Source of the DNA: an uncultured Elusimicrobia bacterium
GTDB lineage: Bacteria > Elusimicrobiota > Elusimicrobia > Elusimicrobiales > UBA9959
Reading direction: 5' to 3'
DNA length: 64,000 nucleotides
Assembly (NCBI GenBank): GCA_903917735.1
Contig: CAIXBR010000123.1
Coordinates: 3,883-67,882, forward strand
Part shown: piece by piece, positions 11,651 to 51,783 of the stretch
Position numbering within the stretch: position 1 is the first letter of the stretch
How the letters are laid out: every line of letters starts with the position of its first letter
Notes under the pieces: model-generated
Told to the model about the DNA's origin: nothing
What the model saw: only the letters and a program-made list of their open reading frames with translations
Databases searched by the model: none
Made by a program: the position numbers and the translations under genes

Positions 11651-13519
11651 TCAGAATGCGATTGAGACCGTACCAGTAACACCGCGTTGGTTCCCGTTCT
11701 TACGCGAGAATGTTGTGTCAAATGTAAGATCCAGCGCTTTATTGCGCGACAGTCTCGCGTCCACTCCCGCAACCAGCTTACCATAGGTACCTGCAAGGCT
11801 GGACACTGGCGTGTGGACGGGCAAGGCCGAGTTCGGATCCTCACCCGTAGTTGTAATGACCCTCGACCCGGTCGAGAAGTAGTGTTCATCCGTAACATTA
11901 AGAAAGGATGTCAATCCATGCAAGCTGGCGCTCAGTTGGAGACCAGCCCGCCCGAGCAGCGTAGCCGACCGTTGTCTGCCCACGATCTGGGCAAGAACGA
12001 TGTCGCCGGACTCGTGGTATGAATCCACCGATACATGGGCGTATGTCAGGCCGGCGATCGGCCCAACCCGCAGGGCCTTGAGATCGAACAGATAACCTCC
12101 CTGCGCATCTGCGGCAAAACTGCTGCCGTCGGGCGAGGAGGTAAGGCTGCCTATCACACCAGGGCGGCGCAGGGAATAGCGGTTAAGCGCGCCGCTCAAC
12201 ACGGCATCTGCGAACCAATGCCGGCTGTTGAATGATGCATAACCGGCCAATTGATAGGAATCAAAAGCGATGGTCCCCATTCCGGCGTTCAGGTCTGAAG
12301 TCGGTCTGGCATAACCCGCGGCCAGGCCTAGCCGCAAGTTCGCCGCGGCCAGATATTCGGCGCCGGCAATTCCTTCGCCCTGGTTCCAGTCCATGCCATA
12401 GGTGTTTGTCCCATCCTTTCTGGTTCCGGTATTGTAATTTCCGGCAAGGAAAAGCGACAGTTTTCCTATGGTTAACTTAGCCGGCATATTTCCCGCCGAA
12501 TCGGCTGCCTGAGCAGCTTTAACCTTAGCCGCACGGAGGCGCCCGTTGTTAAGCCGCGCCAAAAGCGACGAGGAAAAGGCTTGCGCGCTTGCCGCTGCCA
12601 GGTCGGACTGGGCGGGCACCTGATAGGCCGAATTGAGCAGGTTCTGGATGTATTTGGCGATTATAAGGGCGAACGCATCCGACGGGTGGCCTCTGTAAAA
12701 CGCGTATTGGTTCTGAACGGAAAGCGGCGCCGCGGTGCAGCCTGAAATTCCGTAGCAATCCCCGGAAATAAATCCGTACATGGACGGCTCGTCCAGAACG
12801 CGGTTGGCCAGCGTGTTTACGTCCAGGATGCGCAAATGGACGCTGGTGCTTTCGTAAGGGGCTAAAGTGGCCGGAAGGACGGAGTTCAGCGTTGTGTAAT
12901 AGGCGTTGTCGGCGCTGTTCGCAACGCCGACTAAGTTTGCAAGACTGAACCCGCCAAGAGTCATCCTATCAAAGGGCATTCCGCCAAAAAGGATAAAGTT
13001 GCGCCCGCCCAGGGCGATAAGGTTGCCAACATCGGTTGAGATATAGCCGGCGACAGTATAACCCAGCCCCGCGCCTACGGTCACAGCGTATGACGCCGTG
13101 ATATCGTTCCCAGCGAAAGAAATACTGACCAGATCGCTCGCGCCTATGGTGCGGCCCAGCGCCTGGAACTCCGAGATCTGCCCGAACATGTTCGGATAAG
13201 TGCCGGCCGGGGAATCTGGATAGACGGGATAGGATAACGCGACGCTTTTGGTCCCCGGGCCGGCGGCAGTGCCGCCGATAGCGAAATCGTTGGTTTGCAC
13301 GAACTGGTACGGGGAAATAGCGCCCAACTGCATTGGCGTGTTGCGATAATTGGAGCAGACTCCAAGCGGCGTGCTCCAGACGGCGCAATCGTAACGAGCG
13401 TCCTGGAAACTGTCACCGAACTCATAGATGCTGCCTGCCTGGACAACTTGTGCATCCGCCCTTGGGATCCATGCGAACGAACAAACGGTGGCAACGGCGC
13501 CGATGAAAAAATATTTCAT
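11651..13519 (-). CDS. GDSL/SGNH esterase autotransporter (EstA-like)
   Basis: Signal peptide, block I FGDSFQD near the N-terminus, C-terminal beta-barrel ending TGTVSIAF. Confidence 0.8.
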   Translation of the reverse strand: MKYFFIGAVATVCSFAWIPRADAQVVQAGSIYEFGDSFQDARYDCAVWSTPLGVCSNYRNTPMQLGAISPYQFVQTNDFAIGGTAAGPGTKSVALSYPVYPDSPAGTYPNMFGQISEFQALGRTIGASDLVSISFAGNDITASYAVTVGAGLGYTVAGYISTDVGNLIALGGRNFILFGGMPFDRMTLGGFSLANLVGVANSADNAYYTTLNSVLPATLAPYESTSVHLRILDVNTLANRVLDEPSMYGFISGDCYGISGCTAAPLSVQNQYAFYRGHPSDAFALIIAKYIQNLLNSAYQVPAQSDLAAASAQAFSSSLLARLNNGRLRAAKVKAAQAADSAGNMPAKLTIGKLSLFLAGNYNTGTRKDGTNTYGMDWNQGEGIAGAEYLAAANLRLGLAAGYARPTSDLNAGMGTIAFDSYQLAGYASFNSRHWFADAVLSGALNRYSLRRPGVIGSLTSSPDGSSFAADAQGGYLFDLKALRVGPIAGLTYAHVSVDSYHESGDIVLAQIVGRQRSATLLGRAGLQLSASLHGLTSFLNVTDEHYFSTGSRVITTTGEDPNSALPVHTPVSSLAGTYGKLVAGVDARLSRNKALDLTFDTTFSRKNGNQRGVTGTVSIAF

Positions 13520-17580: not shown

Positions 17581-17983
17581 TTATCCCCAGCGCAAAGTTA
17601 TGGAGATACGGTGGGCATTGCCGATGCCGCCCATCGGGACGAAGGCGTAGTCGATGCTCTCGGACTTGAACTGATAACCGAAACCCGCGGTGATCTCTAT
17701 CCCGGCCTCGTTGCGTGTGCTGAAACCTAAACGTAACGCCAGCGGTTCCAGTAATCGCGTTTCGCCACCCGCGGCCAGCAGCGCGCCCTGGCCGCGCTCT
17801 TCGGTTATATCGAGCGCGATCAGGTTCTCATGGCCACACGCCTTGAAGCGATAGGCGGCCCCGGCCCGCAGGTTCAAAGGCAGATTTTCGTTCTTTTTAT
17901 CGAAACGCACGGCGGGCCCGAGATTCTGCAGAACAAGGGCGGGCCAGGCTGAGAATGACCGCGGCAATAGTAAATATTTTCAT
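17581..17983 (-). pseudogene. PorV-like outer-membrane protein, internally deleted and frameshifted
   Basis: ATG at 17983 overlaps the S41 stop (ATGA) and gives the signal peptide MKIFTIAAVILSLARPCSAE, then stops after 28 codons. A second frame retains only the last ~125 aa (..LPLNLRAGAAYRF..DYAFVPMGGIGNAHRISITL). Intact paralogs are 314-345 aa. Confidence 0.7.
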
Positions 17984-20454
17984 CGGATCACCAACAGCTT
18001 TTTCACCAAGTCAGCGCTCCCCGGGCTGCTGATGACCGCCAGATAGCCGCCCGTAGCGACATCCTGCCCCGAAGCGTTGCGGACGTCCCAGCGCAGTTTT
18101 CCATTAGAATTATCGGACCTGAAGCTCGTCACCAGCTGGCCGGTCACTGTGTAGATCTTTATCCCCGCGCGCTGCGGCAGATTGTCGAAGATGATACCCG
18201 AGTTAGGGTCGCAGGAAGAGTAAGTCTTGCCTTTGTCCGGATCGCCGCTGCCGGGCCGGTAGGGAATGGGATAGACCCGTAGCGTGGACAAGCCGGCTGC
18301 GGCCCCCGTACCAAAGGCGGTGAAGATGGACAAGTGGCGGATCTGCCCCGTAACTACCTTGCGCGCCGTGTCAGCCTTAGAGCCCGGCACCTCTTCCCAC
18401 AGCCCGCTCGTCTCGTCTATCACGTAAAGCCGCAGTGTGTCGGCGCGAACAGGCGGGGAAGTTCCGTCCACAAATCCCGTGTTGTTCGCGTCGGGGTAAG
18501 GGATTTTCACAGTGACCGGCAGTTCGAGCGTTCCCGTGGCGCGGCATCCGGCCACCACGATGAGGAACTCGGTCAGGGAACTGCCAGCGCCCCGCATTCC
18601 CGCCGGCACTACGGCCGCAGAAATCAGTGCGGTGGTGTTGCTCATCAGGGGGCGTTGCAGCGGAGAATCAGAAAGCATCCAGCCCGTGGCGGCTCCCAGA
18701 AGCGACAGGGGGATATCCAGCTCCGTAATGCCGTTGTTCCCCGTCAGAGTGCTGCTGTCCGTTCCCGTAATGTAGGACCCAAGCGCGGGCGTAAACACGG
18801 TCACAGTCCTTGAGAAGGCCTCCCCGGCGGGGTTGGAGGCCCGCAGGCAGCGGGAATAAGCTGTGGCCGGGGGAAGGCCGGTTTCAAGGTAATAAGTGGC
18901 GGAGCCTGGGAGCGAGGCCAGCAGGCCGCCGGTGGAAGTGAAAAGATCGAAAGTGCCCGTTAGCCCGCCGATAGGCGTCCAGGCCCAGCGTATCGCGGCG
19001 CTTGAAACCACGAGCGCTCTCAATCTTGGCGGAACGGGCGCTATCGTGTCGAGGGCGAAGGCAAGCTCGGGATCGTCGCCGTTAGCGAAGGCGATAGCCG
19101 TTTCTTTGGTTAGGGGGACGCGGATAGTCGGCGACACGCCGCCCGCGCCGTTGCGACTGTCGAGCTGGACGGTCTGGCTTTCGTCCAGCGATTGGCCGTA
19201 TGGGAACCCTATCTTAACGCCGCCGGGAAGCAAAACGCCGTCGCCCACCATGCCGAACGAACCGTTCGTGCCGTAGAACCCGATTATTTCCCCGTGGGAC
19301 GACCGTGCTATCCCCATAGCCACGCCCTCCCCCGAACTGATGGTTCCCGGGCTCACCAGGGCCCTTACCGGGCCGCCGTAGCGCGGCAGCTGCGGCACTA
19401 TAGAGATGGAACCGCCGCTAGTGATTGCACCGTTGTTGTCGATGCCTATCTCGTATACCCCGGTCTGCGTGTTGTAGTATTTCTGGTACTCATAGAAGGA
19501 GGCGGCCTGGTAAAAGAACCCGGAGTAGCGGGCGGCCATATCGTCGCTACCGCCGTGGTTGCCGCGCAGGTCGACTATCACGCCTGGGACGTCCGCGTCA
19601 ACAAAGGTCTGGATCGCAGTTTTGAAATCGTCATAGACGCGCTGCAGGTCCGCCTCCATCGTCAGCCTTATGTAGCCGTGCCCGCTGGGGAGTATCCTGA
19701 AGGCGACTGGCCACACCGCCATATCGGCGCCGGCGGCGAAATCCGCGCGCGCGAGGGTGGCGAAGTTGTCGCTTACGGCGGTGAGGACGGCGGTCTGCGC
19801 AGAGGACTCTCCGTCGTTGCGGAAGATGATGGTGGCCTGGGTCCCTACCGGGGCGCGGGCGAGGTTGTTGAATTGTTCTATGCGCACATTCTCGTCCGTA
19901 GCAAGCGGGCTGTTCCCGCCCCGCCAGGTCAGGTCCAGCTGTGAGAGCGCGGTAGAAATACCGACCCCGTTCCACTGGGTGATCTCCGCTCCGGGCAACA
20001 TTCCGGCGGCCGCAGCGGGGCCTCCTGGCAGAACCAGGTGGGCTATCACGTGCCCGTCGTCAAGTTCCGCGACGGCAAGCCCGAAGCCGCCGCCGATGCG
20101 ATTTCCGATCACTTCGTTTATAGCGGCGCCTTTTACACTGATGTGCCCGTCCGGCACGGAGAAGCCGTAACGGCGGAGAGCAGTCAGATACGCCAAAGTG
20201 TCGTTCGCCGACTCTGCCGCCGCTATCTGCGGGAGATACATTGTTCTGAGCCCCGCCCAGTCCACGGCCTTCCATTGTGTAAACGCGTATTCGCGGGAAA
20301 ATTTGGCATGGGCGGCTTCGAAGGCCTGCGTCCAGGTCATGGTACTGAAGTCTTCTTCCTGAGGGAGATGGATAATATCGCCGGCGTACCCGCTGGCGGC
20401 CGGTGCGGCAACCGCCAGGGCGAAAATGGCCACAGCTTTTTTAACTATTTTCAT
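17980..20454 (-). CDS. S41-family peptidase with PDZ, Fn3-like region and T9SS-type C-terminal domain
   Basis: Signal peptide, PDZ-like GLAVAELDDGHVIAHLVLPGGPAA, and DLRGNHGGS. The last ~90 aa match the CTD pattern (YPIPYRP..IKIYTVTGQLV..GGYLAVI..KKLLVIR). Confidence 0.8.
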   Translation of the reverse strand: MKIVKKAVAIFALAVAAPAASGYAGDIIHLPQEEDFSTMTWTQAFEAAHAKFSREYAFTQWKAVDWAGLRTMYLPQIAAAESANDTLAYLTALRRYGFSVPDGHISVKGAAINEVIGNRIGGGFGLAVAELDDGHVIAHLVLPGGPAAAAGMLPGAEITQWNGVGISTALSQLDLTWRGGNSPLATDENVRIEQFNNLARAPVGTQATIIFRNDGESSAQTAVLTAVSDNFATLARADFAAGADMAVWPVAFRILPSGHGYIRLTMEADLQRVYDDFKTAIQTFVDADVPGVIVDLRGNHGGSDDMAARYSGFFYQAASFYEYQKYYNTQTGVYEIGIDNNGAITSGGSISIVPQLPRYGGPVRALVSPGTISSGEGVAMGIARSSHGEIIGFYGTNGSFGMVGDGVLLPGGVKIGFPYGQSLDESQTVQLDSRNGAGGVSPTIRVPLTKETAIAFANGDDPELAFALDTIAPVPPRLRALVVSSAAIRWAWTPIGGLTGTFDLFTSTGGLLASLPGSATYYLETGLPPATAYSRCLRASNPAGEAFSRTVTVFTPALGSYITGTDSSTLTGNNGITELDIPLSLLGAATGWMLSDSPLQRPLMSNTTALISAAVVPAGMRGAGSSLTEFLIVVAGCRATGTLELPVTVKIPYPDANNTGFVDGTSPPVRADTLRLYVIDETSGLWEEVPGSKADTARKVVTGQIRHLSIFTAFGTGAAAGLSTLRVYPIPYRPGSGDPDKGKTYSSCDPNSGIIFDNLPQRAGIKIYTVTGQLVTSFRSDNSNGKLRWDVRNASGQDVATGGYLAVISSPGSADLVKKLLVIR

Positions 20455-21354: not shown

Positions 21355-22191
21355 TTACTTAAAGCCCAGACTCTTCCTGATAAATTGCGCGCGCTTAAAA
21401 TATTCCCGGGATAAAACCGGGTCTCCCTTTTTATCGAATAATCTGCCTAGTCCTTCAAGGCCCTTTGCCAGCCCCGGCGAATACTCCGCCAGGCGGTCTT
21501 CCTCTACGGACCCACTGAAGCCGGCGATAGCTTCGTCCAGCTTCCCTTCGCGCTCCGCCAGGCTGCCCAGATTTTGCAGACAGGCCGCGGCCAGCCGATG
21601 TTGTTTCAGACGTTTGGCTGAGCTCAGGGCCTCTTCAAAATATTTCCGCGCCCGGGCGGCTTCGGCCTGATCAAGCGCCAGGAGGCCCAGATTATTGGTA
21701 ATGACCGCGTAGCCGCTCTTGTCGCCGGCTTCCCGGGCCAGCCCTAGGGCCTTTTCAAACTCGGCTGCGGCTGCTTCGTAATTTCCCTGCAGGCGGAGAA
21801 CATTGCCTGAATTGTTCAGGTTTACGGCCAGCCCCTTGTTATTTTTTATTTCGCCGTTGAGCAGGCCGGCCTTTAAAAACTTTTCCTGCGCCGAGGGAAA
21901 CTCGCCCGCCTCCACATACAACTGCCCGAGATTGTTCAGGCTTTCGGCCATGCCGGCCCTGTCGTCTATTTCCATGGCCAGGGTCAGCGCTCTGTCATAA
22001 AGCTTCGCCGCGGCTGCGTAATCGCCGCGGAAATACGATTCGTTGCCGCGTAAATTCAGGCTTTTCGCTGCGTTATGCCGGTCGCTGACCACGTAAGAAC
22101 GGGTAGAACAGGCCGTGAGCAGGAGCAGGAAGATAAACAGCGCTTTCTGAGCGCCCCCGGCAACCCGCTTTTGAGATTTGAAAGTCAGCAT
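21355..22191 (-). CDS. TPR-repeat lipoprotein
   Basis: Lipobox LLLTACS and about six TPR units (AEFEKALGLARE, YFEEALSSAKR). Confidence 0.75.
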   Translation of the reverse strand: MLTFKSQKRVAGGAQKALFIFLLLLTACSTRSYVVSDRHNAAKSLNLRGNESYFRGDYAAAAKLYDRALTLAMEIDDRAGMAESLNNLGQLYVEAGEFPSAQEKFLKAGLLNGEIKNNKGLAVNLNNSGNVLRLQGNYEAAAAEFEKALGLAREAGDKSGYAVITNNLGLLALDQAEAARARKYFEEALSSAKRLKQHRLAAACLQNLGSLAEREGKLDEAIAGFSGSVEEDRLAEYSPGLAKGLEGLGRLFDKKGDPVLSREYFKRAQFIRKSLGFK

Positions 22192-22197
22192 TTTTAA

Positions 22198-23067
22198 TTA
22201 GGGAGTTCTCCCTTCGAAACCAAGGGAAGCGTCTTCCTTCAGGCGTTTCTCGATATTGCCCCTTATTAAAAGATTCTTCTGCAGCGAGCGGATCACTTTT
22301 TCCGATTCTTCCAGGTCCGTCCTGGCCGCCGAGATCGAAGCCTTGAACTCCGGCGTGGATTCTTCCATGCCCGCCAGGATATTGTCCAAATGAAGCGCGG
22401 AGGAGCTGAGTTTGTCATAAAGCTCGCGTTTCTCCACCAGCATTCCGATAGTCCCGGTTTCCGAGCCGAGCGCGTCCGCCAGCTTTTTTGTGGCGGTGTT
22501 GACATTGGTAAGGGCCTGCATGAGGTCTCCCTGCGGATTTGCTACTCTACTTGTGGCCGAATTGACGTTGGCGAGGGTCTGCATGAGGTCGCCCCGCGGG
22601 CTTTCCAGGTTCGCGATAAGCCGTGCGGTATTGTCGATGAGCGCTTTGAGGTCGACCTTTCCCTCGTCTACGGAGGGGATGACCCCTCCCTTGGGCAGGG
22701 GCGGGGCGTTGTCTGGACCGGGGATGATCTCCAGGCTGTTCGATCCCAGCATAGGCTGGACGAGGGAAATTTTGGCGCCGGTATTTATTTTGCGCGCATA
22801 CTGGCGAAAGACCTTGACCCCGACCTCCACCCGGTTGTCGGGGCCCAGCCCGACGGAAGAAATCTTGCCTGCATCCAGGCCTTTGATGGTGATGCTGGTC
22901 CCTATCCGCAGCCCCCTCCCCTCTTCGAAATACGCGATATACTGGGAATAGGACTGCAGCCATTTCTGTCCGCGCGCCACTATGGCAAGCAGGATGAGTA
23001 CTATCGCGCAGGATAACAGGAAAAATGCGCCGATGATCTTCTGCCGGTTTTTAAATTTAAAGTGCAT
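22198..23067 (-). CDS. mlaD: MlaD/MCE-domain protein
   Basis: N-terminal TM, MCE fold block GLRIGTSITIKGLDAGKISSV, long helical tail. Confidence 0.75.
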   Translation of the reverse strand: MHFKFKNRQKIIGAFFLLSCAIVLILLAIVARGQKWLQSYSQYIAYFEEGRGLRIGTSITIKGLDAGKISSVGLGPDNRVEVGVKVFRQYARKINTGAKISLVQPMLGSNSLEIIPGPDNAPPLPKGGVIPSVDEGKVDLKALIDNTARLIANLESPRGDLMQTLANVNSATSRVANPQGDLMQALTNVNTATKKLADALGSETGTIGMLVEKRELYDKLSSSALHLDNILAGMEESTPEFKASISAARTDLEESEKVIRSLQKNLLIRGNIEKRLKEDASLGFEGRTP

Positions 23068-23089
23068 AGGTCGTCCGTAATATTATGGT

Positions 23090-23830
23090 CTAATATTTCC
23101 GGTTTATCAAGGTCAACCGCTTGCAGCGGAAGTCCGCCACCATTCCCGCGTCCTTCAAAGGGCCGTAATAAGTGATCCTGCCGCCGTCCAGCGTAAGCAC
23201 TTTGTCTGCGGACTTGAGCAGCAGCTCCCTGTCCTGCGTGGTCAGGATCTGGCCGGCGCCTTTTCGCTTCTGCTGAAGTATTTCGGCCTCGATCAGCCCG
23301 GTAAATTCGGAGTCCGCGTTCTGCGTGGGCTCATCCCAGAAAAAAAAGTCGCGCCCGAGTAGCATCGTCCTTATGAAAGAGACCTTTTGCCGCACATCCG
23401 TAGACAGCGCGGCCGGGAGCGACTCGGCGACAGGAGCGAGGTTCAGCCGCTCAAGCCAGGCGTTAATCGAGCTCGAGATCCCGGCTTCCGTCGTCTCCCC
23501 GTAATACCGCAGCGGCAGGGCGAGGTTATCGAACACGTTCAGATTGGCGATGAGCACTGCCTCCTGAAAATATAAACCCATCCTGTACCTGAGTTCGTTC
23601 TGCTCTATCATGGAAAGGTCGCTGAATACTTTTCCGTCTATCAGCAGCTCGCCTTTGACCGGTGTTAAAAGCCCGGCGCAAAGTTTCAGCAGGGTGCTCT
23701 TGCCCGTGCCGATCGGCGCCACTATCGCCAGAACCTCACCGGGGCAAACTGAAAAAGAGGCCGACTCTATGAGATTCTCGCCCCCGTCATAGGCAAAAGA
23801 GACGTCTCTCAGTTCAAGTTTGAAGGGCAT
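23090..23830 (-). CDS. ABC ATPase of Mla-like system with degenerate signature and H-loop
   Basis: Walker A APIGTGKST, Walker B FFFWDEPT. The signature reads LSTDVRQK instead of LSGGQ, and the H-loop position reads TTQD. Confidence 0.75.
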   Translation of the reverse strand: MPFKLELRDVSFAYDGGENLIESASFSVCPGEVLAIVAPIGTGKSTLLKLCAGLLTPVKGELLIDGKVFSDLSMIEQNELRYRMGLYFQEAVLIANLNVFDNLALPLRYYGETTEAGISSSINAWLERLNLAPVAESLPAALSTDVRQKVSFIRTMLLGRDFFFWDEPTQNADSEFTGLIEAEILQQKRKGAGQILTTQDRELLLKSADKVLTLDGGRITYYGPLKDAGMVADFRCKRLTLINRKY

Positions 23831-23833
23831 GGG

Positions 23834-24619
23834 TTAAATATAAAAAAACGCCGTTATGATGATGTTGACGGCGAAACACGCGTATATCGACCAAACCACG
23901 GCGCGCGTAGCCACCTGGGGGATCTCCGTAAAAGAGAATTTAACGGAGAAGCCCTGGTAGCAGCAGATTACGGCCACTATTATCCCGAAGAGAAAGCACT
24001 TGATGCCGCTGACGGCCACGTCCCAGAAACCCAGGGCCCGGCTGAGATCGTCGAGATACAGGGTAAACGGGTAATGTATGATGAATCTCGAGACCAGATA
24101 GCCGCCGAATAAAGCCACCATGTTGAAAAAGAAAGAGAGACAGAACACGGCGACCGACATCCCGACTATCCTGGGAAACACCACGTAGCGCATCGGGTTT
24201 ATCCCCATCATCTCAAGCGCCTGTATTTCATGGTTCACCATCATATACCCTATTTCCGTGGCGATCGCGGTGCCCGATCGGCCTATCACTATGAACGCCG
24301 TTATTATAGGCCCCAGTTCTCTTACCACCACTACGACCATTATCTTGCCTATCAGGGAGTCCCCGCCCAGATCCGGCACCAAAGAAAAGGTTTCGATAAT
24401 GGTCACCCCGCCTAAAAGCAGGGCGATGACGGCCACTATCTTCATGGCTTCAACGCCGGTAAAAAGTATCTGGTTCATTACCACGCCGAAAACCACGCTG
24501 TCGCCGCGGCCGCGCTTGCCCATCCCCACCCTGAACGACTCCAGGAAAAGGGTGCCCATGTCGAGCAGATCAGAAATATACTGCCAGATAGCCGAACCCG
24601 TTCTTTCTAAAATATCCAT
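23834..24619 (-). CDS. mlaE: MlaE-family ABC permease
   Basis: 261 aa, ~5 TM. Blocks ELGPIITAFIVIGRSGTAIATEIG are typical of MlaE. Confidence 0.8.
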   Translation of the reverse strand: MDILERTGSAIWQYISDLLDMGTLFLESFRVGMGKRGRGDSVVFGVVMNQILFTGVEAMKIVAVIALLLGGVTIIETFSLVPDLGGDSLIGKIMVVVVVRELGPIITAFIVIGRSGTAIATEIGYMMVNHEIQALEMMGINPMRYVVFPRIVGMSVAVFCLSFFFNMVALFGGYLVSRFIIHYPFTLYLDDLSRALGFWDVAVSGIKCFLFGIIVAVICCYQGFSVKFSFTEIPQVATRAVVWSIYACFAVNIIITAFFYI

Positions 24620-25264: not shown

Positions 25265-25948
25265 ATGAGGTGGGAACCAACGATAAGTGCCCTTATGTTT
25301 ACTATAGATTTTCGGATCAGAGTCGGGTTTATGATCGTCGCCATGGTCTGGAATGTGGGGGCATTGGCGGCGGCGCAGCCGCAGGATGACGATCCTGTCA
25401 TCGAACTGCAAAAGACCCTGGAAGAGCAGGGAAAGCCTTATCAGGCGATAAACAATCTTAATCCTTTTAGTGATGACTACGGCAAGACAGATCCGCTTAC
25501 CCATACAAACTCATCAGGCGCCGTGGTCGTTTCATCCCAGTCGGCCAAGCAATTGGCGCAATTACAAAAGCTATTGTCCACCCCGGTCGTGCATGGCTAC
25601 TTGAGTCTGTTTTCTAAACCGGTTTTATCAAGCGGCATAAACAAGGTTATCAAACGTCCTAACCGCAAGATCCTTTTATATTCGGAAATAGGCTTACTGC
25701 TCTGCATGATCGTTTTTCGGGCTTGGCGACAATCCAAGGCGAAGCATTGGTACCGCAAGCTGTGGATAACTTTTTATTGCCTGGTTTTGGGCATGGGTCT
25801 TGGCGTGTTTGTGGTTCCGGCCGTTGTCATGGGGCGAAGTTATTTTGGTACGCTAAAGGAAATCGCGCAAAGCCTGCTGCCTTCGCATCATCGATATATT
25901 TTTAAAATTCCGGCCTTTGGAAACAATAAAGGACTCGGGGGAAGATAG
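25265..25948 (+). CDS. Hypothetical membrane/exported protein
   Basis: 227 aa with an N-terminal hydrophobic segment plus two C-terminal TM helices. No recognisable motif. Confidence 0.5.
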   Translation: MRWEPTISALMFTIDFRIRVGFMIVAMVWNVGALAAAQPQDDDPVIELQKTLEEQGKPYQAINNLNPFSDDYGKTDPLTHTNSSGAVVVSSQSAKQLAQLQKLLSTPVVHGYLSLFSKPVLSSGINKVIKRPNRKILLYSEIGLLLCMIVFRAWRQSKAKHWYRKLWITFYCLVLGMGLGVFVVPAVVMGRSYFGTLKEIAQSLLPSHHRYIFKIPAFGNNKGLGGR

Positions 25949-26189: not shown

Positions 26190-27872
26190 ATGAAGAAATT
26201 TTTAATGTCAGGCCTCGTTCTGCTCGGTGTTTCCATTCCCGTTTCCGGGATGCAGCGCCCGTCCCCAGAGCAGCTCTCCGCCTACCGCAAGGACGGCACT
26301 TTTACCGAAAGGCTCGCCTTTGCCCGCACTATCGGCAACGACAAATTCTCTCCCGAAGTGGTGGCGCGCGTTAAGAACGCTCTCCGCATAAAGGCGCTCA
26401 TGCAGCAGGGGCTTACCCGCGAAAAGGCGATTTCTCTGACGCCTCCTCCCGCCTGGCGGGGGCTGCCCACCACCGGTACGCCTAAAATATTCGTCCTCCT
26501 CATCGACTTCAACGATTATGCCGGCGTGAATTCCTCGACCACGGTAAATACCAGGATCTTCGGAGCCGGCACCGGCGGCTATCCTTATGAAAGCCTCACT
26601 AACTATTACCTCAGGTCCTCTTACGGCCTGCTGAACATCCAGGGCGCTACGCTGGGCTGGTTTCACGCCGGAGTTGCGCGCGCGACCGTCCCTCAGACTA
26701 CCGCCGGCCGCGAGGCGCTCATAGAGCAGGCCGTCTCCTATTTCGCCGCGCATGGGCACGATTTCGCGCAATACGATAATAACGGCGACGGTACGGTGGA
26801 TTATTTTGCCGTTATATGGACCGGACCGGACAACGGCTGGGCTAATTTCTGGTGGGGGTATGAAACCTCTTTCACGGACCCGATCTATACTGTCAGCGGC
26901 AAGAAGCTGGGGAAGTACTCCTGGCAATGGGAATCCAGCCCCCCCGGCCAGGCGTACAGTCCCAGAGTGCTTATTCACGAGACCGGCCACGCGCTCGGCC
27001 TGCCCGACTACTACGACTATTACGCTGCCGCAGGCCCCGGTGGTGGCGTGGGCGGGCTGGATATGATGGATGCCGATACGGGGGACCACAACGCCTTCAG
27101 TAAATATATGCTGAACTGGCTCGCCCCCGTAAATTCCCCCTCGGGCACCCTGACCGGGACGCTCCGTCCCTCGGACGCCTATCCTGATGCCGTAAAAATG
27201 ATGCCGGAGTCCGTGGCCGGGGACGTTTTTAATGAATATTTCATAGTGCAGAACCGCCGGCAGACGGGCAACGACCAGGACTTTCCTTCCAGCGGGCTCC
27301 TTATCTGGCACGTGGACGCGCATCTGGACGCGAGCGGCCAGAATTTTCTTTTCGACAATTCCTATACGTCCCATAAGATCCTTCGCCTGATGGAAGCGGA
27401 CGGCCTGGAGTCCATCGAGGCCGGTTTTTCCGCCGAAGCAGGTGATTATTATACTCCGGGCAAGACCTTCACTCCGACCTCGGTGCCGAACAGCAATAAC
27501 TATTCCGGCGCTTATACCGGCATCAATATCGGAGATATCGCCGGGACTTCCGACTCCAGGACCTTCAATTATTATGTAATGGACGCAAACAAACTTGTCT
27601 CCCCCACGGATAATGTCTTTAGGCCGCTAAAGGGCGGCAAATGCAGGCTGGACGTGACGCCCTTAAAGGCCGGGAACTTTACCCTGAAGGTCTATACCGT
27701 TAACGGAAGTTTTGTTAAGACGATCTATACCGGCCCGGCGCCTATGGGCGTGAACACTTACAACTGGGCCGGGGATGCCGAAAGCGGGCGGATCGTGGCA
27801 AGCGGACTTTACCTGGTCCATGTCGCCGGGCCCGGACTGGACATAACGGAGAAAGTGGTGGTGATCAAATGA
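26190..27872 (+). CDS. M6-like (immune inhibitor A type) zinc metallopeptidase with T9SS-type C-terminal domain
   Basis: Signal peptide and HETGHALGLPDYYDY zinc motif. The last ~90 aa match the CTD pattern (FRPLKGG..LKVYTVNGSFV..SGLYLVHV..KVVVIK). Confidence 0.8.
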   Translation: MKKFLMSGLVLLGVSIPVSGMQRPSPEQLSAYRKDGTFTERLAFARTIGNDKFSPEVVARVKNALRIKALMQQGLTREKAISLTPPPAWRGLPTTGTPKIFVLLIDFNDYAGVNSSTTVNTRIFGAGTGGYPYESLTNYYLRSSYGLLNIQGATLGWFHAGVARATVPQTTAGREALIEQAVSYFAAHGHDFAQYDNNGDGTVDYFAVIWTGPDNGWANFWWGYETSFTDPIYTVSGKKLGKYSWQWESSPPGQAYSPRVLIHETGHALGLPDYYDYYAAAGPGGGVGGLDMMDADTGDHNAFSKYMLNWLAPVNSPSGTLTGTLRPSDAYPDAVKMMPESVAGDVFNEYFIVQNRRQTGNDQDFPSSGLLIWHVDAHLDASGQNFLFDNSYTSHKILRLMEADGLESIEAGFSAEAGDYYTPGKTFTPTSVPNSNNYSGAYTGINIGDIAGTSDSRTFNYYVMDANKLVSPTDNVFRPLKGGKCRLDVTPLKAGNFTLKVYTVNGSFVKTIYTGPAPMGVNTYNWAGDAESGRIVASGLYLVHVAGPGLDITEKVVVIK

Positions 27873-28813
27873 GGCTTCTCTCTGCCGGCCTGGCCTTCTT
27901 TCTGGGCGCGGTCCTGTTTGCCGCCGCGCGGGCCGAAAATGGTCTTACCGGAGCCCCTATTCTTAACAGGCCCGTAGGCGCCCGGTCTTCCGGTATGGGC
28001 AGGGCTTTTACCGCCGTGCCCGGTGACGTGGAAGATATCATGTACAACCCTGCGGGGCTGGCTTTCGCTCCAAGCCTGAAGGCCTATGCCGCGTATATGA
28101 ACGGTTTTGGCGGGGGAAATTATGGTTTTGCCGGGATCCCGCTCAAGCTCTGGAATTTTGTTCTTACCCCCGCTTTCTTGTATTACAATTCGGGCGGCAT
28201 GGACCTGAATCTTTCGGACGGGACGACCGGGAATGTCGTCGGCGAGATGGATAAGGTTTCCATGTTGTCGGCCGCCTACCAGCCCCTGCACGGGCTTGCT
28301 TTGGGCGCTACTGTCAAGCGCACCGAGATAGATCTGGCTGAAACGGCCTCGGCTTCGGCGATGAGCTATGATTTCGGCGCCCTTTACTCCATAGAGGACG
28401 GGCTCAGCTTCGGGGCGGCATCGTTGAATAATGGCGCCGCCATAAAGTTCGAGGACAAGGGCGACCCGTCACCGGCTACGTTCCGCGGCGGGGTTTCCTA
28501 TAAATTTGTTTTTAATCCGGCCAATTTCCTGGATCATTCTTCACCAGTTACCTACTGCGACCTGGTTTTCGCATCGGATTGGAGCAAGGTCAATAAGGAA
28601 GCTGGCCACTACCAGTCCGGCCTGGAGATGAATATGAAGATGCCGGAATCCATATTCTTAAGCTTGCGCGTAGGCTATCTGTTTAACCGGGCCGAAGACG
28701 GCTTTACCTTCGGCCTGGGCCTGAGGAACGGACCTTGGGATTTCGGGTTCGGCTTTGAAACGGCGAAAAAGCTGGATTCCCGTCATCCGGTTTCCGTTTC
28801 TTACGAGTTCTGA
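27869..28813 (+). CDS. PorV-like outer-membrane barrel protein
   Basis: ATGA overlap with the M6 gene. Signal peptide, SGMGRAFTAVPGDVEDIMYNPAGLAF near the N-terminus, ends ..HPVSVSYEF. Paralog of 46791-47828. Confidence 0.65.
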   Translation: MRLLSAGLAFFLGAVLFAAARAENGLTGAPILNRPVGARSSGMGRAFTAVPGDVEDIMYNPAGLAFAPSLKAYAAYMNGFGGGNYGFAGIPLKLWNFVLTPAFLYYNSGGMDLNLSDGTTGNVVGEMDKVSMLSAAYQPLHGLALGATVKRTEIDLAETASASAMSYDFGALYSIEDGLSFGAASLNNGAAIKFEDKGDPSPATFRGGVSYKFVFNPANFLDHSSPVTYCDLVFASDWSKVNKEAGHYQSGLEMNMKMPESIFLSLRVGYLFNRAEDGFTFGLGLRNGPWDFGFGFETAKKLDSRHPVSVSYEF

Positions 28814-30003: not shown

Positions 30004-31374
30004 TCAAAACTTCATTATCATTTCAACTTTTCCGGAGAGGCCGTTCATTTCGGAGGGGGCCGTGGAAGAGAGCGACTTTGAGATTATCCGGCGGACCGTC
30101 AGATCAAGCGCGGTGTTGTCAGTTAAATGCAAACCGCCGCCCAGCGCAAAGACGTCGTCCGTATATTTATAGGAAGAGAAGCCGTACCTGGAGTTGAGGT
30201 GCCTGGCGCTGGCCCGGATAGCTAAACGGGCTGACGGCAAAACCTCCACCCCGCCCGCAAAAGAATCCTGTGTGGTATTGGAAGGGCTGCCGCTGTTGTG
30301 GTCCGTATATTCCCACTTTGAATTTCCGGCCTCCGCTCCGATAAGAACGCGGCCGCCAAAAAGGCGCAGAGCCGCGCCGCCGGCCAACGCCCTGTTTGTT
30401 CGCAGGATGTTGATATAGCTGCTGCCGGCAGAATCGTCACGGCTCTCTTCGGTCTTGTTCGCGGTTTCTGCTCCGATGGTGAGCGCTCCCAGCGCAAGCA
30501 CAACGCGCGCGCCGAACTCCTTCGGCCCCGTTTTGTAGCCGTACGCCGACGAGGGTGAGGTCCAGTCTCCCCGCAATTTAGCCGCCGAACCGCGCAGCCC
30601 GAGCTTGAGCAGATTGCCGAAAGAGGCTACAAGCTGCGCGCCGTATTGCATCCCGGCAGAAGGGCGCTCGTAGGAACTGCTCCCCATGCTGCTGGAATAG
30701 CCCCTGTCCACATAATCGGCCGTTCCGCCGAAAGCCACGCCGGCCGGGCCGATATCCGTCTTATAGGCTATAGCTCCGCCGGCGGCATGCTGTCTGTCCG
30801 CGTACTTGTAAGTAGCCGCGCCGCTAGAATTATCAGTATCGGTTTCCTTGTAAGAGTTAAGACTGGCATGAAGTCCGAGCATAATCCTGCCGACGGTACA
30901 ACCATATCCGGCTCCGCCCGAGGGGCTCTTGGACAGCCATGTTTCGTTCATATAGGAAGGGGCAAATTTATCCCTTTCAGCCGTATCGGCAGCTTCCAGC
31001 TCGAACGATTTCAGCTGGGTGTGAACTCCCGACTGAAACTCGGTGTAGGAAGCTATATTGTGGTTGCCGGTGCCGCCCGTGGATTTTTCTTGGCCGTTGA
31101 AGTAGCTGCCTTCCGCTTTCAGCGTCTTCGACGATTCTTTAGCCAGCCAGGCGCGGTTATCGCCCCAGGAATTAAGATCAAGCGCGTTCGAGTCGTCTTC
31201 AATGGCGGCGCTCATCTGCAGCGCATCGAGACGACTGTCGGAAAATCTAACGTTCCTGTCCCTGATGCGCAGATCCTGGACCAGAGAGATGGAGCCGGAG
31301 AACTGAGCCTGAGCCAAAGCCGGAAAAAGAATGGCGGCAGCAAAGCCGGGCATTAATAGTTTAATTTTCATCAC
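30004..31374 (-). CDS. Outer-membrane beta-barrel hypothetical protein
   Basis: Signal peptide ending ALAQAQ, G/S/A/Y-rich alternating strands, C-terminal ..KVEMIMKF. Confidence 0.6.
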   Translation of the reverse strand: MMKIKLLMPGFAAAILFPALAQAQFSGSISLVQDLRIRDRNVRFSDSRLDALQMSAAIEDDSNALDLNSWGDNRAWLAKESSKTLKAEGSYFNGQEKSTGGTGNHNIASYTEFQSGVHTQLKSFELEAADTAERDKFAPSYMNETWLSKSPSGGAGYGCTVGRIMLGLHASLNSYKETDTDNSSGAATYKYADRQHAAGGAIAYKTDIGPAGVAFGGTADYVDRGYSSSMGSSSYERPSAGMQYGAQLVASFGNLLKLGLRGSAAKLRGDWTSPSSAYGYKTGPKEFGARVVLALGALTIGAETANKTEESRDDSAGSSYINILRTNRALAGGAALRLFGGRVLIGAEAGNSKWEYTDHNSGSPSNTTQDSFAGGVEVLPSARLAIRASARHLNSRYGFSSYKYTDDVFALGGGLHLTDNTALDLTVRRIISKSLSSTAPSEMNGLSGKVEMIMKF

Positions 31375-34808: not shown

Positions 34809-35080
34809 CTGCAGGAAACATAAGTGAGGCTATCGCCTGATTTTCCGGAGAATCTCCCCTTTTCCTTCGCTGAATTTTGCCGGGTTCCCCCTCGTCCGGC
34901 GGTTTGCCGGGCATGCGTATCCAGCTGGCATTGTTCATCGGGCGGGCCGCAGTTTTGCAGTGCTACAGGGGCAGGTTTGGACTATGGAAAATCGGCGGGC
35001 AACCCCAGGCAGGTTAAGAGCCGCATTAGCTCTTTATCATTGAGAATAACAGCCACCGGCTTTATTTCTCTTTTGCATTT
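34809..35080 (-). mobile_element. IS91-family 3'-end relic, copy C (long form, internally deleted)
   Basis: Outer end CTGCAGGAAACATAAG. Minus strand encodes KCKREIKPVAVILNDKEL.. Lacks the TATAAT block and part of the tail. Confidence 0.65.
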
Positions 35081-35889
35081 TTTTCCGGGGGCTTGCTGAC
35101 TTGCCCGGCCGCAGGCACCACGTATATTGACCCTTCGTAAGAGCCGCCGTGCTCGCCCCGGGCCTTGACTAAGAGCACCCAGCAGGACTCTTCAGAAACG
35201 GCCGCGTCCTTTGGAAGGACTGCCGTAACGCGGTACTCCCAGCCGGCCGCGGTCTGCGCCGCGGACCCCGCTTTGGCCGGCCGTGTCGCGGTCGGGCTGT
35301 CGCCTTCCCCGTACAGTTCCAGGACAGCCTCCACCGAAGCCGCTCTTTTCTCCAGCGTCAGTACACCGGCCGCCTCGGCGCCGGGCGCGCACCGTATCTC
35401 GTCCGGCTCCAGCTTCACCTTGCCGAAATGGATGCGGTCCATAAGGGAACTCCCGCTTAGCCACAAGCTCGACCCCGTACCCGCCAGCAGGAAGATGGCG
35501 CCGAGAGCCATATTGAAAGCATCTTTAGGGTCCAGGGACGCCCGCAGCTGCCAGCCGGCGTACCCGGCCAGCCCCAACATCACTATCGACACCAGCCAGA
35601 TTTTGGAGAGCAGTAAATCCGCGTAGTTGGCGGCCTTAGCCGGCACCCGCAGAAAGAGGAGCAGGAAAGGCAGCCCGAAAGGCCCGGTCCAAATCCCGAT
35701 CCCGCCGAAAAGCATCCCCACGCCCAGCACGAACCAGTGGTTGTAATTCTCAAGGAAGGCGGCGGGGTGCAGCAGGCCCGCCGCTACCAGCAGCAGCCAC
35801 AGGGAAGCCGGCAGCAACAGCGAGGAAAAAGCCAGCCCGGCTACCACCCCGCCCATGGACCCAAAATTTTCTTTAAACCAGTTCATCAA
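35062..35889 (-). CDS. Hypothetical polytopic membrane protein
   Basis: 275 aa, ~5 N-terminal TM helices and a soluble C-terminal half. Its last codons and stop lie inside relic C. Confidence 0.55.
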   Translation of the reverse strand: MMNWFKENFGSMGGVVAGLAFSSLLLPASLWLLLVAAGLLHPAAFLENYNHWFVLGVGMLFGGIGIWTGPFGLPFLLLFLRVPAKAANYADLLLSKIWLVSIVMLGLAGYAGWQLRASLDPKDAFNMALGAIFLLAGTGSSLWLSGSSLMDRIHFGKVKLEPDEIRCAPGAEAAGVLTLEKRAASVEAVLELYGEGDSPTATRPAKAGSAAQTAAGWEYRVTAVLPKDAAVSEESCWVLLVKARGEHGGSYEGSIYVVPAAGQVSKPPEKNAKEK

Positions 35890-37196: not shown

Positions 37197-37850
37197 TTAT
37201 GGAACCTGTGGGGGCTCGTGACTAGCAGCTGATGGCAAGATTTTGGGTGTTGTATTCTTATCAACCTGCTCCCCTATCCCGGGATGGTCTTTTTTCAACT
37301 GCGCCATTTCGGCTTTATTGGCGTCCCGCAGTGCTTTGAGAGATGCGCTTTGGCCGGCTTTCCTGGCTTTCATGGCCCTGCGTATTTCCGACTGAGGCTT
37401 CGACTTCAGACTTTCCCTGAGCACCGCTATTTCCTCTGCCTGACTGTTTTTTAATTCGGTGATAGCAGCTCTGTGCTTTTTCCTGAGTTCATAAACGGTG
37501 CTTATTTTCTCCTGCCGGGCCGGCTCCTGCTTAACCGGGGTTCCGGACAACTCAGGCGGGAGCAAAGCACCGGCCGGCTCAGACTTAATCGGAGCTCCTG
37601 CCGGCTCGGACTTGAGGAGGGTTCCGTTCGGCTCTGACTTGACCGGGGCTCCGGCCAGTTCGGGTTTGAGCAGCGCTCCGGACGGCTCAGACTTAAGCGA
37701 GGTTCCGGCAGGCTCGGATTTGAGCGGGGTTCCGGGCTGATCGGACTGTACCGGGGTGGTGGATATTGCAGGCCTGCTCTCCTGGGTGTTTTGCGCGCAG
37801 GAAGGCGCAGCGAACCAGACCGCTGTCATTACCGCAAATATCGTTTTCAC
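37197..37850 (-). CDS. Secreted protein with 9-aa tandem repeats and a basic helical C-terminal half
   Basis: Signal peptide MKTIFAVMTAVWFAAPSCA, eight LKSEPAG(A/T)x-type units, then an ELKNSQAEEIAVLRESLK.. helical region. Confidence 0.65.
   Translation of the reverse strand: MKTIFAVMTAVWFAAPSCAQNTQESRPAISTTPVQSDQPGTPLKSEPAGTSLKSEPSGALLKPELAGAPVKSEPNGTLLKSEPAGAPIKSEPAGALLPPELSGTPVKQEPARQEKISTVYELRKKHRAAITELKNSQAEEIAVLRESLKSKPQSEIRRAMKARKAGQSASLKALRDANKAEMAQLKKDHPGIGEQVDKNTTPKILPSAASHEPPQVP
37533..37748 (-). repeat. 27-nt in-frame tandem repeat (about 8 units)
   Basis: Repeated GGCTC(A/G)GACTT(A/G)A..GG..C(C/T)(G/C)C units encoding (L/V)KSEP(A/S/N)G(A/T)(L/P/S). Confidence 0.7.
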
Positions 37851-46794: not shown

Positions 46795-47828
46795 AAACGG
46801 GCAAATTAGTGGATTGGCGCTATGTCCTGGTCTTTCCGGCGATCTTCGCCGTAATATGTCCGTTACGCTCCTTCGCGGGTTTTGACGCCGGCGACAAAGG
46901 CACATCCGCGGCGCAATTCCTTAAATTGGGCGCCGGGGCGAGGGCGGCCGGAATGGGGGAGGCATATTCGGCGGTCTGCGCCGACTCCGGAGCCGTTTAC
47001 TGGAATCCGGGAGGCCTCGGCTTTCTGAACGGCGTTTCCGGGACCTTCACGCACGCGGACCTGTTCGGCGAGCTGAACTATGAGTACCTGGGGTACGCGC
47101 AGTCCTTCGGGAACGCCGGAACCGCCGGGCTGGGCGTCCAGTACCTGTCGTCCGGGCGCATACCCGAAACGGACGCCGCCGGTTTTGAGACCGGAGCCGC
47201 TATGGCGCCGGTGCAGTACGCCGTCTCCCTTGCTTATGCGCGCAAGGTCGGCGGCTTCGGGATAGGCGCGGCAGCCAAGTATATAAGGTCCCGGCTCTCG
47301 GCGACCGCCTCCGCCTTAGCCGCCGACGCCGGCGTTCTAAGCCCTGCCCTGATGGATAATAAGCTCCGGCTGGCGTTCGTGGTCCAGAACGCGGGCGGCG
47401 GATTGAAATACGGGCAAAGCACCGATCCCCTGCCTTTAAATTTGAAACTGGGCGGCGCTTTCTCTTTTTCGGACAAGCTGATCTTCGGCCTCGATGTTAA
47501 TTCCCCGCGCGATAACAGGATCTATGCCGGCGCCGGCGCTGAATACCTGCTCCGCTATTCCGGGGTCTCTTTCGCCCTCCGCCTCGGTTATAACAGCAGG
47601 ACTTCTGGAGACATCGACGGGATGACCGGAGTTTCTACGGGGCTCGGGGTTGTGTTCCACGACATGGTCCTGGACTACGCTTTTATTCCGTTCGGTCCCC
47701 TCGGTTTCGCGCACAGGATCTCGCTGAGCTTCAAATTAGGCGGAAAGGCTCCGTTCCCGGCCCCCGCAGCGCTGAGAAAACCAGGCTCTCCGGTCCTTGG
47801 CGGGGCGGACGTGCAAAAATCGCGGTGA
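46791..47828 (+). CDS. PorV-like outer-membrane barrel protein
   Basis: ATGA overlap with the giant gene. Signal peptide, AAGMGEAYSAVCADSGAVYWNPGGLGF block, ends ..VLDYAFIPFGPLGFAHRISLSFKLG plus a short tail. Confidence 0.7.
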   Translation: MKTGKLVDWRYVLVFPAIFAVICPLRSFAGFDAGDKGTSAAQFLKLGAGARAAGMGEAYSAVCADSGAVYWNPGGLGFLNGVSGTFTHADLFGELNYEYLGYAQSFGNAGTAGLGVQYLSSGRIPETDAAGFETGAAMAPVQYAVSLAYARKVGGFGIGAAAKYIRSRLSATASALAADAGVLSPALMDNKLRLAFVVQNAGGGLKYGQSTDPLPLNLKLGGAFSFSDKLIFGLDVNSPRDNRIYAGAGAEYLLRYSGVSFALRLGYNSRTSGDIDGMTGVSTGLGVVFHDMVLDYAFIPFGPLGFAHRISLSFKLGGKAPFPAPAALRKPGSPVLGGADVQKSR

Positions 47829-48220: not shown

Positions 48221-48985
48221 TTATCTGCTGTGGCCCTCGAACACGACAACATTAGCCATCACATCTGACGAAACTATCATATCCGGGAATTGTTTTTTCA
48301 GTTTGGCGGCAACGGCTTTGGGCTGGTCCATGCCTTCGGTGGACAGTTCTATCCACACCTGACCGGCCATGGCCGAGTTTTTTCGCGGGAGCGCTAAGGT
48401 CAGATCGGGATACGCCGAGAATATTTCACGTATGCGCTGCTCGTATAAAAAATCCCCGGAAAAAAATACCACGCAGCTGTCATCGTTGGCATGGCATGAC
48501 ACATTTTTCACTTCCGGAAGTTCCTTTATCTTTTTCAGGTTTTGACTTTTGATATAGGCCAGCTTCACGGAGTCAACCATCCCCGTAGATTTTCTGGGAT
48601 TCAGTTCTGCCGCCCGGATCGCGTCATTATCCTGATAGAATATTATTTTAAATCCGAGTTTGCCGAAAAAAGTCTCCACATTAATTCTGGTTTCCCGCGC
48701 TGTTTTTCCCCCTATCCTGGCGCTTAGCAGCTCTACATTAATGAATGGTTTGGAGTCCTCATCCTGGCCGAATACATCCGCCAGCTGCGCGGATTTCTGT
48801 GGCACGGCCGGAATAGGCGGCTTAGAGGTATTTTCCGTGATAACAGGAATGGCGGTGCTGAACTCCCCGCCTCCCTCAGCTATAGCGTCCCTGAAATCGG
48901 AGGGCAGCGCGGTTTTTTGCCGCGTGAAGATCAGCGTCCCAAGGGTTACTGCCACCGCTATAAGCGCCAGTGTTTTAGTTCTCAT
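48221..48985 (-). CDS. Hypothetical exported protein
   Basis: 254 aa with the signal-anchor MRTKTLALIAVAVTLGTLIF. No recognisable motif. Confidence 0.55.
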   Translation of the reverse strand: MRTKTLALIAVAVTLGTLIFTRQKTALPSDFRDAIAEGGGEFSTAIPVITENTSKPPIPAVPQKSAQLADVFGQDEDSKPFINVELLSARIGGKTARETRINVETFFGKLGFKIIFYQDNDAIRAAELNPRKSTGMVDSVKLAYIKSQNLKKIKELPEVKNVSCHANDDSCVVFFSGDFLYEQRIREIFSAYPDLTLALPRKNSAMAGQVWIELSTEGMDQPKAVAAKLKKQFPDMIVSSDVMANVVVFEGHSR

Positions 48986-51693: not shown

Positions 51694-51783
51694 ACAAGTC
51701 CCCTCCTTAGCTGTTTTGTAATTGCTTCTAGACAAAGCAATGTTACAAACTGCGGGAGGGGACCCTCTATATGATTATCGGGC

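Follow-up and report, generated by a model that had tools for sequence, protein, structure and literature searches.

Genes for C-terminal-domain proteins and predicted PorV/PorQ-family barrels occur as coupled pairs in Elusimicrobiota

The 64,000-nucleotide stretch of DNA analysed here (the window), from contig CAIXBR010000123.1 of an uncultured Elusimicrobia bacterium, contains three two-gene cassettes in which the gene for a secreted peptidase of the S41, M6-like or C1 type (the cargo) is followed directly by the gene, in one case a relic, for a predicted outer-membrane barrel of the PorV/PorQ family. Each cargo ends in a C-terminal domain (CTD) that is related to type IX secretion system (T9SS) sorting domains. 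Comparison with other genomes supports the view that this pairing is a conserved, translationally coupled and co-evolving cassette and no accident of this window. Adjacency, common strand, conservation across genomes and a co-variation that is independent of the passenger, by which we define operationally a cognate cargo-carrier cassette, were all found.

An initial annotation of this DNA had described three cargo-partner pairs joined by overlapping ATGA junctions, and we could confirm all three. The six reading frames are present (open reading frame (ORF) listing and translation), all three cargos and both intact barrels have a signal peptide at the N-terminus, and each junction is a 4-nt ATGA overlap, which reads ..ATCAAATGAGG at 27869 in the M6 pair, ..GAAAAATGAAAA at 46791 in the C1 pair and, on the minus strand, ..ATCCGATGAAA at 17983 in the S41 pair (Table 1). 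Hidden Markov models (HMMs) built from the window's own CTDs and barrels, when used in a six-frame scan of the whole window, detected exactly three CTDs and three barrels, every one of them paired. By a rough estimate, adjacency of all three pairs in the correct order and on the correct strand would arise by chance with a probability of about 1e-5 or less; the module is genuine, and chance is ruled out as its cause. At the M6 junction, the last cargo codons (GTG GTG ATC AAA TGA) include GGTGATC, a complement of the 16S 3' end, and GGTGGTGATC may have a Shine-Dalgarno-like role here, the terminal V-V-I-K of the cargo then doubling as ribosome-binding site and start of the barrel gene.

The S41 partner, which had been described as a relic, is indeed a genuine, internally deleted barrel. 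It begins with a signal-peptide start at 17983 and runs into a stop after 28 codons; ~170 codons are gone, and the last ~115 barrel residues are intact in another frame (ORF 17581-17967), where our barrel HMM matched at positions 179-300, that is, over its C-terminal third only (E 4e-55). Gene calls in independent ENA assemblies from this organism include the truncated 128-aa ORF of the relic as well.

The last ~90 aa of the three cargos align on the motif that had been proposed for them. The accompanying claim that the cargos are alike only over their last ~85-90 aa did not extend to the S41 and C1 proteins, whose resemblance spans ~150 aa. It includes a pre-CTD segment of ~55 aa (18268-18430 on the minus strand and 46340-46506 on the plus strand) with the shared motif ..W..VP......K.VTG...H.S.F.., so that these two cargos have a common C-terminal module of ~150 aa rather than 85-90. 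The pre-CTD motif also recurs in metagenomic fragments (P0250, P0252 and P0255).

Membership thresholds of the type A CTD models TIGR04183 and PF18962 were reached by none of the three window cargos: against TIGR04183 (cut-off 23 bits), the M6 cargo scored 20.5 bits and the S41 cargo 15.1 bits, and the C1 cargo gave no match. The M6 cargo, which as a peptidase passes TIGR03296 (154 bits, cut-off 111), is the only one of the three to pass PF13860 (FlgD_ig; 33 bits, cut-off 27), and the S41 and C1 tails match the CTD portion of the PorZ model in NCBIfam. A profile of nine CTD sequences matched the PorZ CTD with E 2.9e-12 and the PorU CTD with E 0.009. Moreover, the AlphaFold2 (AF2) model of the M6 CTD is an all-beta sandwich (predicted local distance difference test (pLDDT) score 74), with PorZ (5m11), the RemA CTD (8gl6_D), FlgD, PorU and the mirolase CTD as its top folds in the PDB, at E-values of only 2e-3 to 4e-2. 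These profile and model matches support the tails as divergent members of the T9SS CTD/FlgD-Ig superfamily, the beta-sandwich assignment made in the initial annotation, and among known CTDs they place those of PorZ and PorU, which are retained, nearest to the window CTDs. When the three window CTDs were used for a profile search, only six short matches came back, too few for a taxonomic picture.

For the partners we relied on three NCBIfam models, NF033709 for the PorV/PorQ family (cut-off 90 bits) and the equivalog models NF033710 for PorV (250 bits) and NF033711 for PorQ (220 bits). Both intact barrels passed the family model (scores in Table 1) and neither reached an equivalog cut-off, the C1 and M6 partners scoring 82.2 and 24.0 bits with the PorV model and 102.9 and 44.5 bits with the PorQ model, so that in both barrels the PorQ score exceeds the PorV score. 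Thus, of the HMM checks suggested earlier, that with TIGR04183 stayed below cut-off for every cargo and that with the PorV/PorQ family succeeded for both intact partners. The Pfam PorV model PF19572 was passed by the C1 partner (42.6 bits, cut-off 27) and not by the M6 partner, and the PorP/SprF models PF11751 and TIGR03519 gave no match at E<=0.1 for the window barrels in the Pfam and NCBIfam searches. The partners have in common a GARxxGMGxA..AV....NPxGL block, and their two families align in hhalign with a probability of 100%, E 1e-55 and 25% identity. Against the PDB, a profile of C1-partner homologues matched Flavobacterium johnsoniae PorV (E 1.6e-25) and one of the M6-partner subfamily matched PorV 6h3i_F (E 5.5e-8). 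Consistent with this, the AF2 model of the C1 partner (pLDDT 82.9), which places the N-terminal segment with the barrel, was closest in fold to PorV 8gl6_F and 6h3i_F (E 4e-13, template modelling score 0.67), followed by FadL and TodX. These comparisons support the window partners as PorV/PorQ-family outer-membrane barrels with a FadL-like fold, much as had been proposed for them. Many barrel homologues also match PF03687 or PF03349. The nearest relatives of the C1 partner carry variable, presumably periplasmic C-terminal extensions of 150-250 aa (TPR-like, HEAT, Ig/CTD-like or Lys-rich), and fusions of PorV with HEAT are frequent among the matches of the barrel protein search; the window barrels themselves have no periplasmic domain.

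Homologues of both window barrels come almost exclusively from Elusimicrobiota metagenome-assembled genomes, and many are named "PorV/PorQ family protein" by NCBI. A barrel scan using one genome per species yielded 241 relatives, from which 80 loci were kept, with a core set of 39 loci from Elusimicrobiota, Endomicrobia and Firestonebacteria; a barrel scan of viral contigs gave no match. Throughout these 39 loci, 36 of 43 barrels have a CTD-ending ORF immediately upstream on the same strand, two of the other seven lie at contig ends and five are unpaired. An NTGA overlap occurs at half of the paired junctions (18/36), the remainder having gaps of 2-30 nt, and one locus (L029) has three cargo-barrel pairs in succession. 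In the subfamily of the M6 partner, AAA-TGA is kept in 10/10 loci. In every context examined for this subfamily (three individual ones and eight loci from metagenomes, with barrels of as little as ~41% identity), the cargo is 475-835 aa long and ends in ..(V/I)V(L/V)IK, with the ATGA overlapping the barrel start.

What precedes the CTD is far more diverse. Elusimicrobiota cargos range in length from ~250 to >3300 aa, and their passengers include Big_5, TIG, Ig, fn3, NHL and SBBP domains, peptidases and unknown domains, most of them not enzymes; the impression of a peptidase-specific module gained from the window alone therefore had to be given up. Cargos of the M6-partner subfamily carry an M6, a C1 plus lectin-like or an unknown passenger, and CTDs borne by unrelated passengers and paired with orthologous barrels are 42-54% identical to the M6 CTD of the window. 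Over 40 Elusimicrobiota pairs, CTD distances correlate with barrel distances (Spearman 0.70, 0/2000 permutations), in 34 of the 40 the nearest CTD is that of a barrel ranked among the three closest, and for the three window pairs CTD and barrel distances fall in the same rank order. Since CTD and barrel co-vary while passengers differ, the conserved unit is the CTD plus the barrel, and the passengers are exchangeable.

The remaining loci belong to Rhodothermales, other Bacteroidota and Calditrichota, within the Fibrobacteres-Chlorobi-Bacteroidetes (FCB) group. Here, a CTD protein of uniform length (~1150 aa) lies directly upstream of the barrel, and the pair adjoins a TonB-dependent receptor and is flanked by ordinary TIGR04183 proteins. 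That the ~1150-aa proteins are PorU was considered and rejected, as they show no PorU sortase match and their barrels pass the family model only, neither the PorV nor the PorQ equivalog (NCBIfam). This cluster is an undescribed paralogous CTD-barrel pair within the FCB group. CTD genes precede a barrel in 40/85 cases in the FCB loci versus 36/43 in Elusimicrobiota, fractions that are biased in both sets, which were anchored on barrels. No CTD gene could be detected upstream of more distant PorV-family barrels from soil metagenomes (L102-L116), which indicates that pairing belongs to particular subfamilies and not to the whole superfamily. That superfamily is large; the M6-partner profile retrieves 15,282 clusters (50% identity) at E<=1e-3 and 335 at E<=1e-30. 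A variant arrangement occurs at L030 11572-15222, where a fusion of a PorV-like barrel with a coiled coil of ~200 aa is followed by a 134-aa protein consisting of signal peptide and CTD only and then by an Omp85-like ORF, and also at L066 1344-3325.

How might such a cassette work? PorU and PorZ retain their CTDs, with PorV and PorQ respectively as their anchors (PMC7463736). By analogy with PorQ holding PorZ, PorV holding PorU and SprF holding SprB, we favour, with moderate confidence, the reading that each locus encodes a cargo and its cognate carrier or anchor, the CTD being held by the barrel and the enzyme displayed at the surface. The peptidase would reach the periplasm via Sec, the PorV/PorQ-family barrel encoded downstream would recognise its beta-sandwich CTD, and the CTD would remain on the extracellular loops of the barrel, leaving the enzyme non-covalently displayed at the cell surface. 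As no CTD-removing sortase would recycle the barrel, barrel and cargo would be needed 1:1, and this stoichiometry of a non-recycled anchor would explain both the presence of one barrel gene per cargo and the ATGA coupling. For the passage of the passenger across the outer membrane, candidate routes are an unrecognised SprA-like translocon, the type II secretion system or something else.

Several points weigh against this cargo-anchor reading. CTD-barrel binding, surface location, CTD retention and the argument from stoichiometry are what we infer, and no translocon for the passengers was recognised, the T9SS core genes having been sought within the 64-kb window only. The co-variation could partly stem from joint inheritance of both genes rather than from co-evolution of an interface. 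Singleton barrels occur in two loci (L024 and L035), and 7/43 CTD genes in the 39 loci have no barrel of their own; as these barrel-less CTDs are 49-73% identical to the CTD of a neighbour that has one, a barrel may be shared. The S41 gene of the window, intact beside its relic, likewise suggests that a cargo may be maintained even when it has no private barrel. The earlier proposal of a dedicated, coupled barrel for each cargo is thus borne out by the 36/43 paired barrels, the retained ATGA and the co-variation, and falls short for those CTD genes that lack a barrel.

A different role for the barrel would be to translocate the cargo itself, as a self-contained, T9SS-independent, two-partner-like unit, possibly BAM-assisted. 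The 1:1 coupled gene pairs recall the logic of tpsA/tpsB, annotation of the window ORFs revealed none of the T9SS core genes (SprA/Sov translocon, PorK/L/M/N = GldKLMN, PorU sortase) in the 64 kb, T9SS genes are stated to be absent outside the FCB group (PMC11285876), and an Omp85-like ORF stands beside the variant pair in L030. We nonetheless regard translocation by the barrel as unlikely, because this is a small, plugged FadL/PorV-type barrel, with its N-terminal segment predicted to lie with it and no POTRA domain, and because cargos of 2500-3300 aa with Kelch, NHL and SBBP propellers plus enzyme domains look as if exported folded. Moreover, PorV is a carrier and not a pore in the solved system, and the order of signal and barrel is unlike that of type Vb secretion (T5b). 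Should the cargo instead stay in the periplasm, tethered to the inner face of the outer membrane by the barrel or its periplasmic extension, one could account for the typically periplasmic location of S41 peptidases and for the HEAT or TPR extensions on many barrel relatives; yet the CTD binds extracellular loops in solved PorV complexes, the cargos resemble adhesins or exoenzymes in their fn3, Ig, lectin, C1 and M6 domains, and the window barrels lack any periplasmic domain, all of which makes this quite improbable.

Two further explanations dispense with a cognate CTD-barrel complex. Given that most Elusimicrobiota cargos are non-enzymatic and that it is the CTD and not the passenger which is conserved together with the barrel, it is very improbable that the barrel is a FadL-like uptake channel for the products of the adjacent peptidase, coupled to it in function with no physical CTD binding, even though its fold lies in the FadL/TodX superfamily, all three window cargos are peptidases and the related FCB pair adjoins a TonB-dependent receptor. 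An ordinary T9SS with one general PorV, in which adjacency is incidental, is scarcely credible: CTD and barrel do both fall in T9SS-associated superfamilies, but three of three window pairs are adjacent and 36/43 barrels are paired elsewhere, the ATGA junction is conserved, the partners co-vary, genomes have several barrel paralogues and neither barrel reaches the PorV or PorQ equivalog cut-off. On these comparative data, incidental adjacency was rejected. A broader idea, which goes beyond the cargo-anchor reading and which we put forward only tentatively as somewhat doubtful, is that the Elusimicrobiota with cassettes have no SprA or GldKLMN, CTD and barrel forming a unit for surface display or export that stands alone outside the FCB superphylum; it would be either an ancestral unit, later recruited into the T9SS as its carrier and signal, or a minimal derivative of the T9SS.

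Elsewhere in the window, a classical autotransporter of 622 aa (11651-13519, minus strand; PF03797 beta-domain, E 4e-39) indicates that this organism exports surface proteins by type Va secretion too. An operon for MlaE, an ABC ATPase and MlaD (outer-membrane lipid asymmetry) with a TPR protein (21355-24619, minus strand) separates the S41 cassette from the M6 cassette, and an IS110-family transposase (50674-51735, minus strand) lies downstream of the C1 pair. In another assembly, at L087 (ERZ27313102 k141_793401), an inverted copy of the ~29-38 kb segment of the window adjoins the C1 pair, which suggests an inversion between the M6 and C1 cassettes at strain level. The remaining ORFs include metabolic genes, and several of the six ORFs without a domain match (Table 1) both flank the cassettes and show conservation in further assemblies of this organism.

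Table 1. Features of the cassettes and of related loci (positions in the window unless a locus is named)
Feature	Position	Strand	Remarks
S41 peptidase cargo, 824 aa	17980-20454	-	PF03572, E 8.5e-15
CTD of S41 cargo	17983-18267	-	C-terminus matches PorZ CTD, E 1.6e-9
S41 partner barrel, relic	17581-17983	-	Signal-peptide start, frame break, internal deletion, C-terminal part kept
M6 metallopeptidase cargo, 560 aa	26190-27872	+	Signal peptide, HETGH catalytic domain, C-terminal CTD
CTD of M6 cargo, last 95 aa	27585-27869	+	Predicted T9SS/FlgD-Ig-type beta-sandwich
M6 coupling junction	27857-27872	+	GGTGGTGATC in last cargo codons, then AAATGA = stop + start
M6 partner barrel, 314 aa, signal peptide	27869-28813	+	PorV/PorQ family; NF033709, 98.5 bits
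Giant C1 peptidase cargo, 2472 aa	39376-46794	+	Papain domain, two Kelch propeller blocks, many fn3, CTD (Pfam Peptidase_C1, Kelch, fn3)
CTD of C1 cargo	46507-46791	+	C-terminus matches CTD part of PorZ model; CTD alignment
C1 partner barrel, 345 aa, 30-aa disordered tail	46791-47828	+	PorV/PorQ family; NF033709, 177.5 bits
C-terminally extended C1-partner relatives	L006 8249-9757, L007 7073-8572, L008 1887-3572, L017 9923-11455, L019 5414-6847		
FCB cluster	L038-L083, e.g. L042 3583-10936		TonB-dependent receptor, uncharacterised ~1150-aa CTD protein, PorV-family barrel
Six ORFs of 217-456 aa	16234-17469 (+), 25265-25948 (+), 30004-31374 (-), 35062-35889 (-), 37197-37850 (-), 48221-48985 (-)		No Pfam or NCBIfam match

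Cognate pairing of CTD and carrier is known for type B CTDs with PorP/SprF in Bacteroidota; new here are the PorV-family barrels and the non-FCB phylum. T9SS genes and CTD proteins were stated in 2024 to be absent outside the FCB phyla (PMC11285876), and our literature search found no paper linking Elusimicrobiota to T9SS, PorV or SprA. Accounts of the T9SS have one general PorV for type A-like CTDs, in FCB only, and here a phylum outside that group has numerous paralogues of the PorV family, with one CTD cargo assigned to each. Taken together, the cassettes offer a library provided by nature, in which cognate CTD-barrel pairs carry interchangeable passengers and which suits co-variation analysis of the recognition code. 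They predict display of proteases and adhesins in gut and groundwater Elusimicrobiota and suggest a compact two-gene surface-display system for engineering; should the T9SS core prove absent, they would bear directly on the origin of the T9SS.

Among known systems, the PorZ-PorQ and PorU-PorV pairs of Porphyromonas gingivalis are alike in that a surface protein that keeps its beta-sandwich CTD is held by a barrel of the PorV/PorQ family (PMC7463736), as we propose for the window. PorZ-PorQ offers a particular likeness, the PorZ CTD being the best match of the window CTD profile and the window barrels favouring the PorQ over the PorV model. Unlike these pairs, however, the window barrels fall below the PorQ and PorV equivalog cut-offs, the cassette cargos are ordinary enzymes or adhesins rather than subunits of the machinery, and the genes are adjacent and translationally coupled, with many paralogous pairs per genome, in a non-FCB phylum. 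Type B CTD cargos depend on PorP/SprF-like shuttles to which they are genetically linked, bind to them and are anchored by them (PMC9143113, PMC12618676); work on these shuttles lists the code behind their specificity as unresolved, conserved motifs being necessary and not sufficient (PMC12618676). SprB-SprF and PG1035-PorP resemble the cassettes in linking a cargo to a dedicated barrel, with specificity in the CTD-shuttle pair (PMC9143113, PMC12618676), a linkage known here from the genes; they differ in that the cassette barrel belongs to the PorV/PorQ family and the cassette CTD is FlgD-Ig/type-A-like rather than of the TIGR04131 type.

Type A cargos have all been reported to use a single PorV (PMC12618676); at the SprA translocon, PorV captures their CTDs with its extracellular loops and takes them away (PMC10994853). 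The PorV of the F. johnsoniae SprA-PorV-RemA-CTD complexes (6H3I, 8GL6) matches the cassette barrel best in both sequence and fold, and the RemA CTD is among the top folds of the cassette CTD; yet that PorV is a single, recycled, general carrier at the SprA translocon, whereas the cassettes have roughly one barrel per cargo. FadL and TodX channels and the UPF0164 proteins of Treponema share the barrel superfamily, but their match is much weaker than that to PorV and they are not known to pair with CTD proteins. Two-partner secretion (T5b, TpsA/TpsB), to which the initial annotation had compared the pairs, also joins a secreted protein and a dedicated outer-membrane barrel as a two-gene unit. 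There, however, the barrel TpsB is of the Omp85 type, with 16 strands and POTRA domains, and TpsA has an N-terminal TPS signal, in contrast to the C-terminal recognition module of the cassettes, and Pfam and NCBIfam searches gave no Omp85, ShlB or TPS domain matches in the window cargos or barrels. As there is neither an Omp85/POTRA barrel nor an N-terminal TPS domain, that analogy fails, and PorZ-PorQ, PorU-PorV and SprB-SprF are much closer analogues of the cassettes than two-partner secretion.

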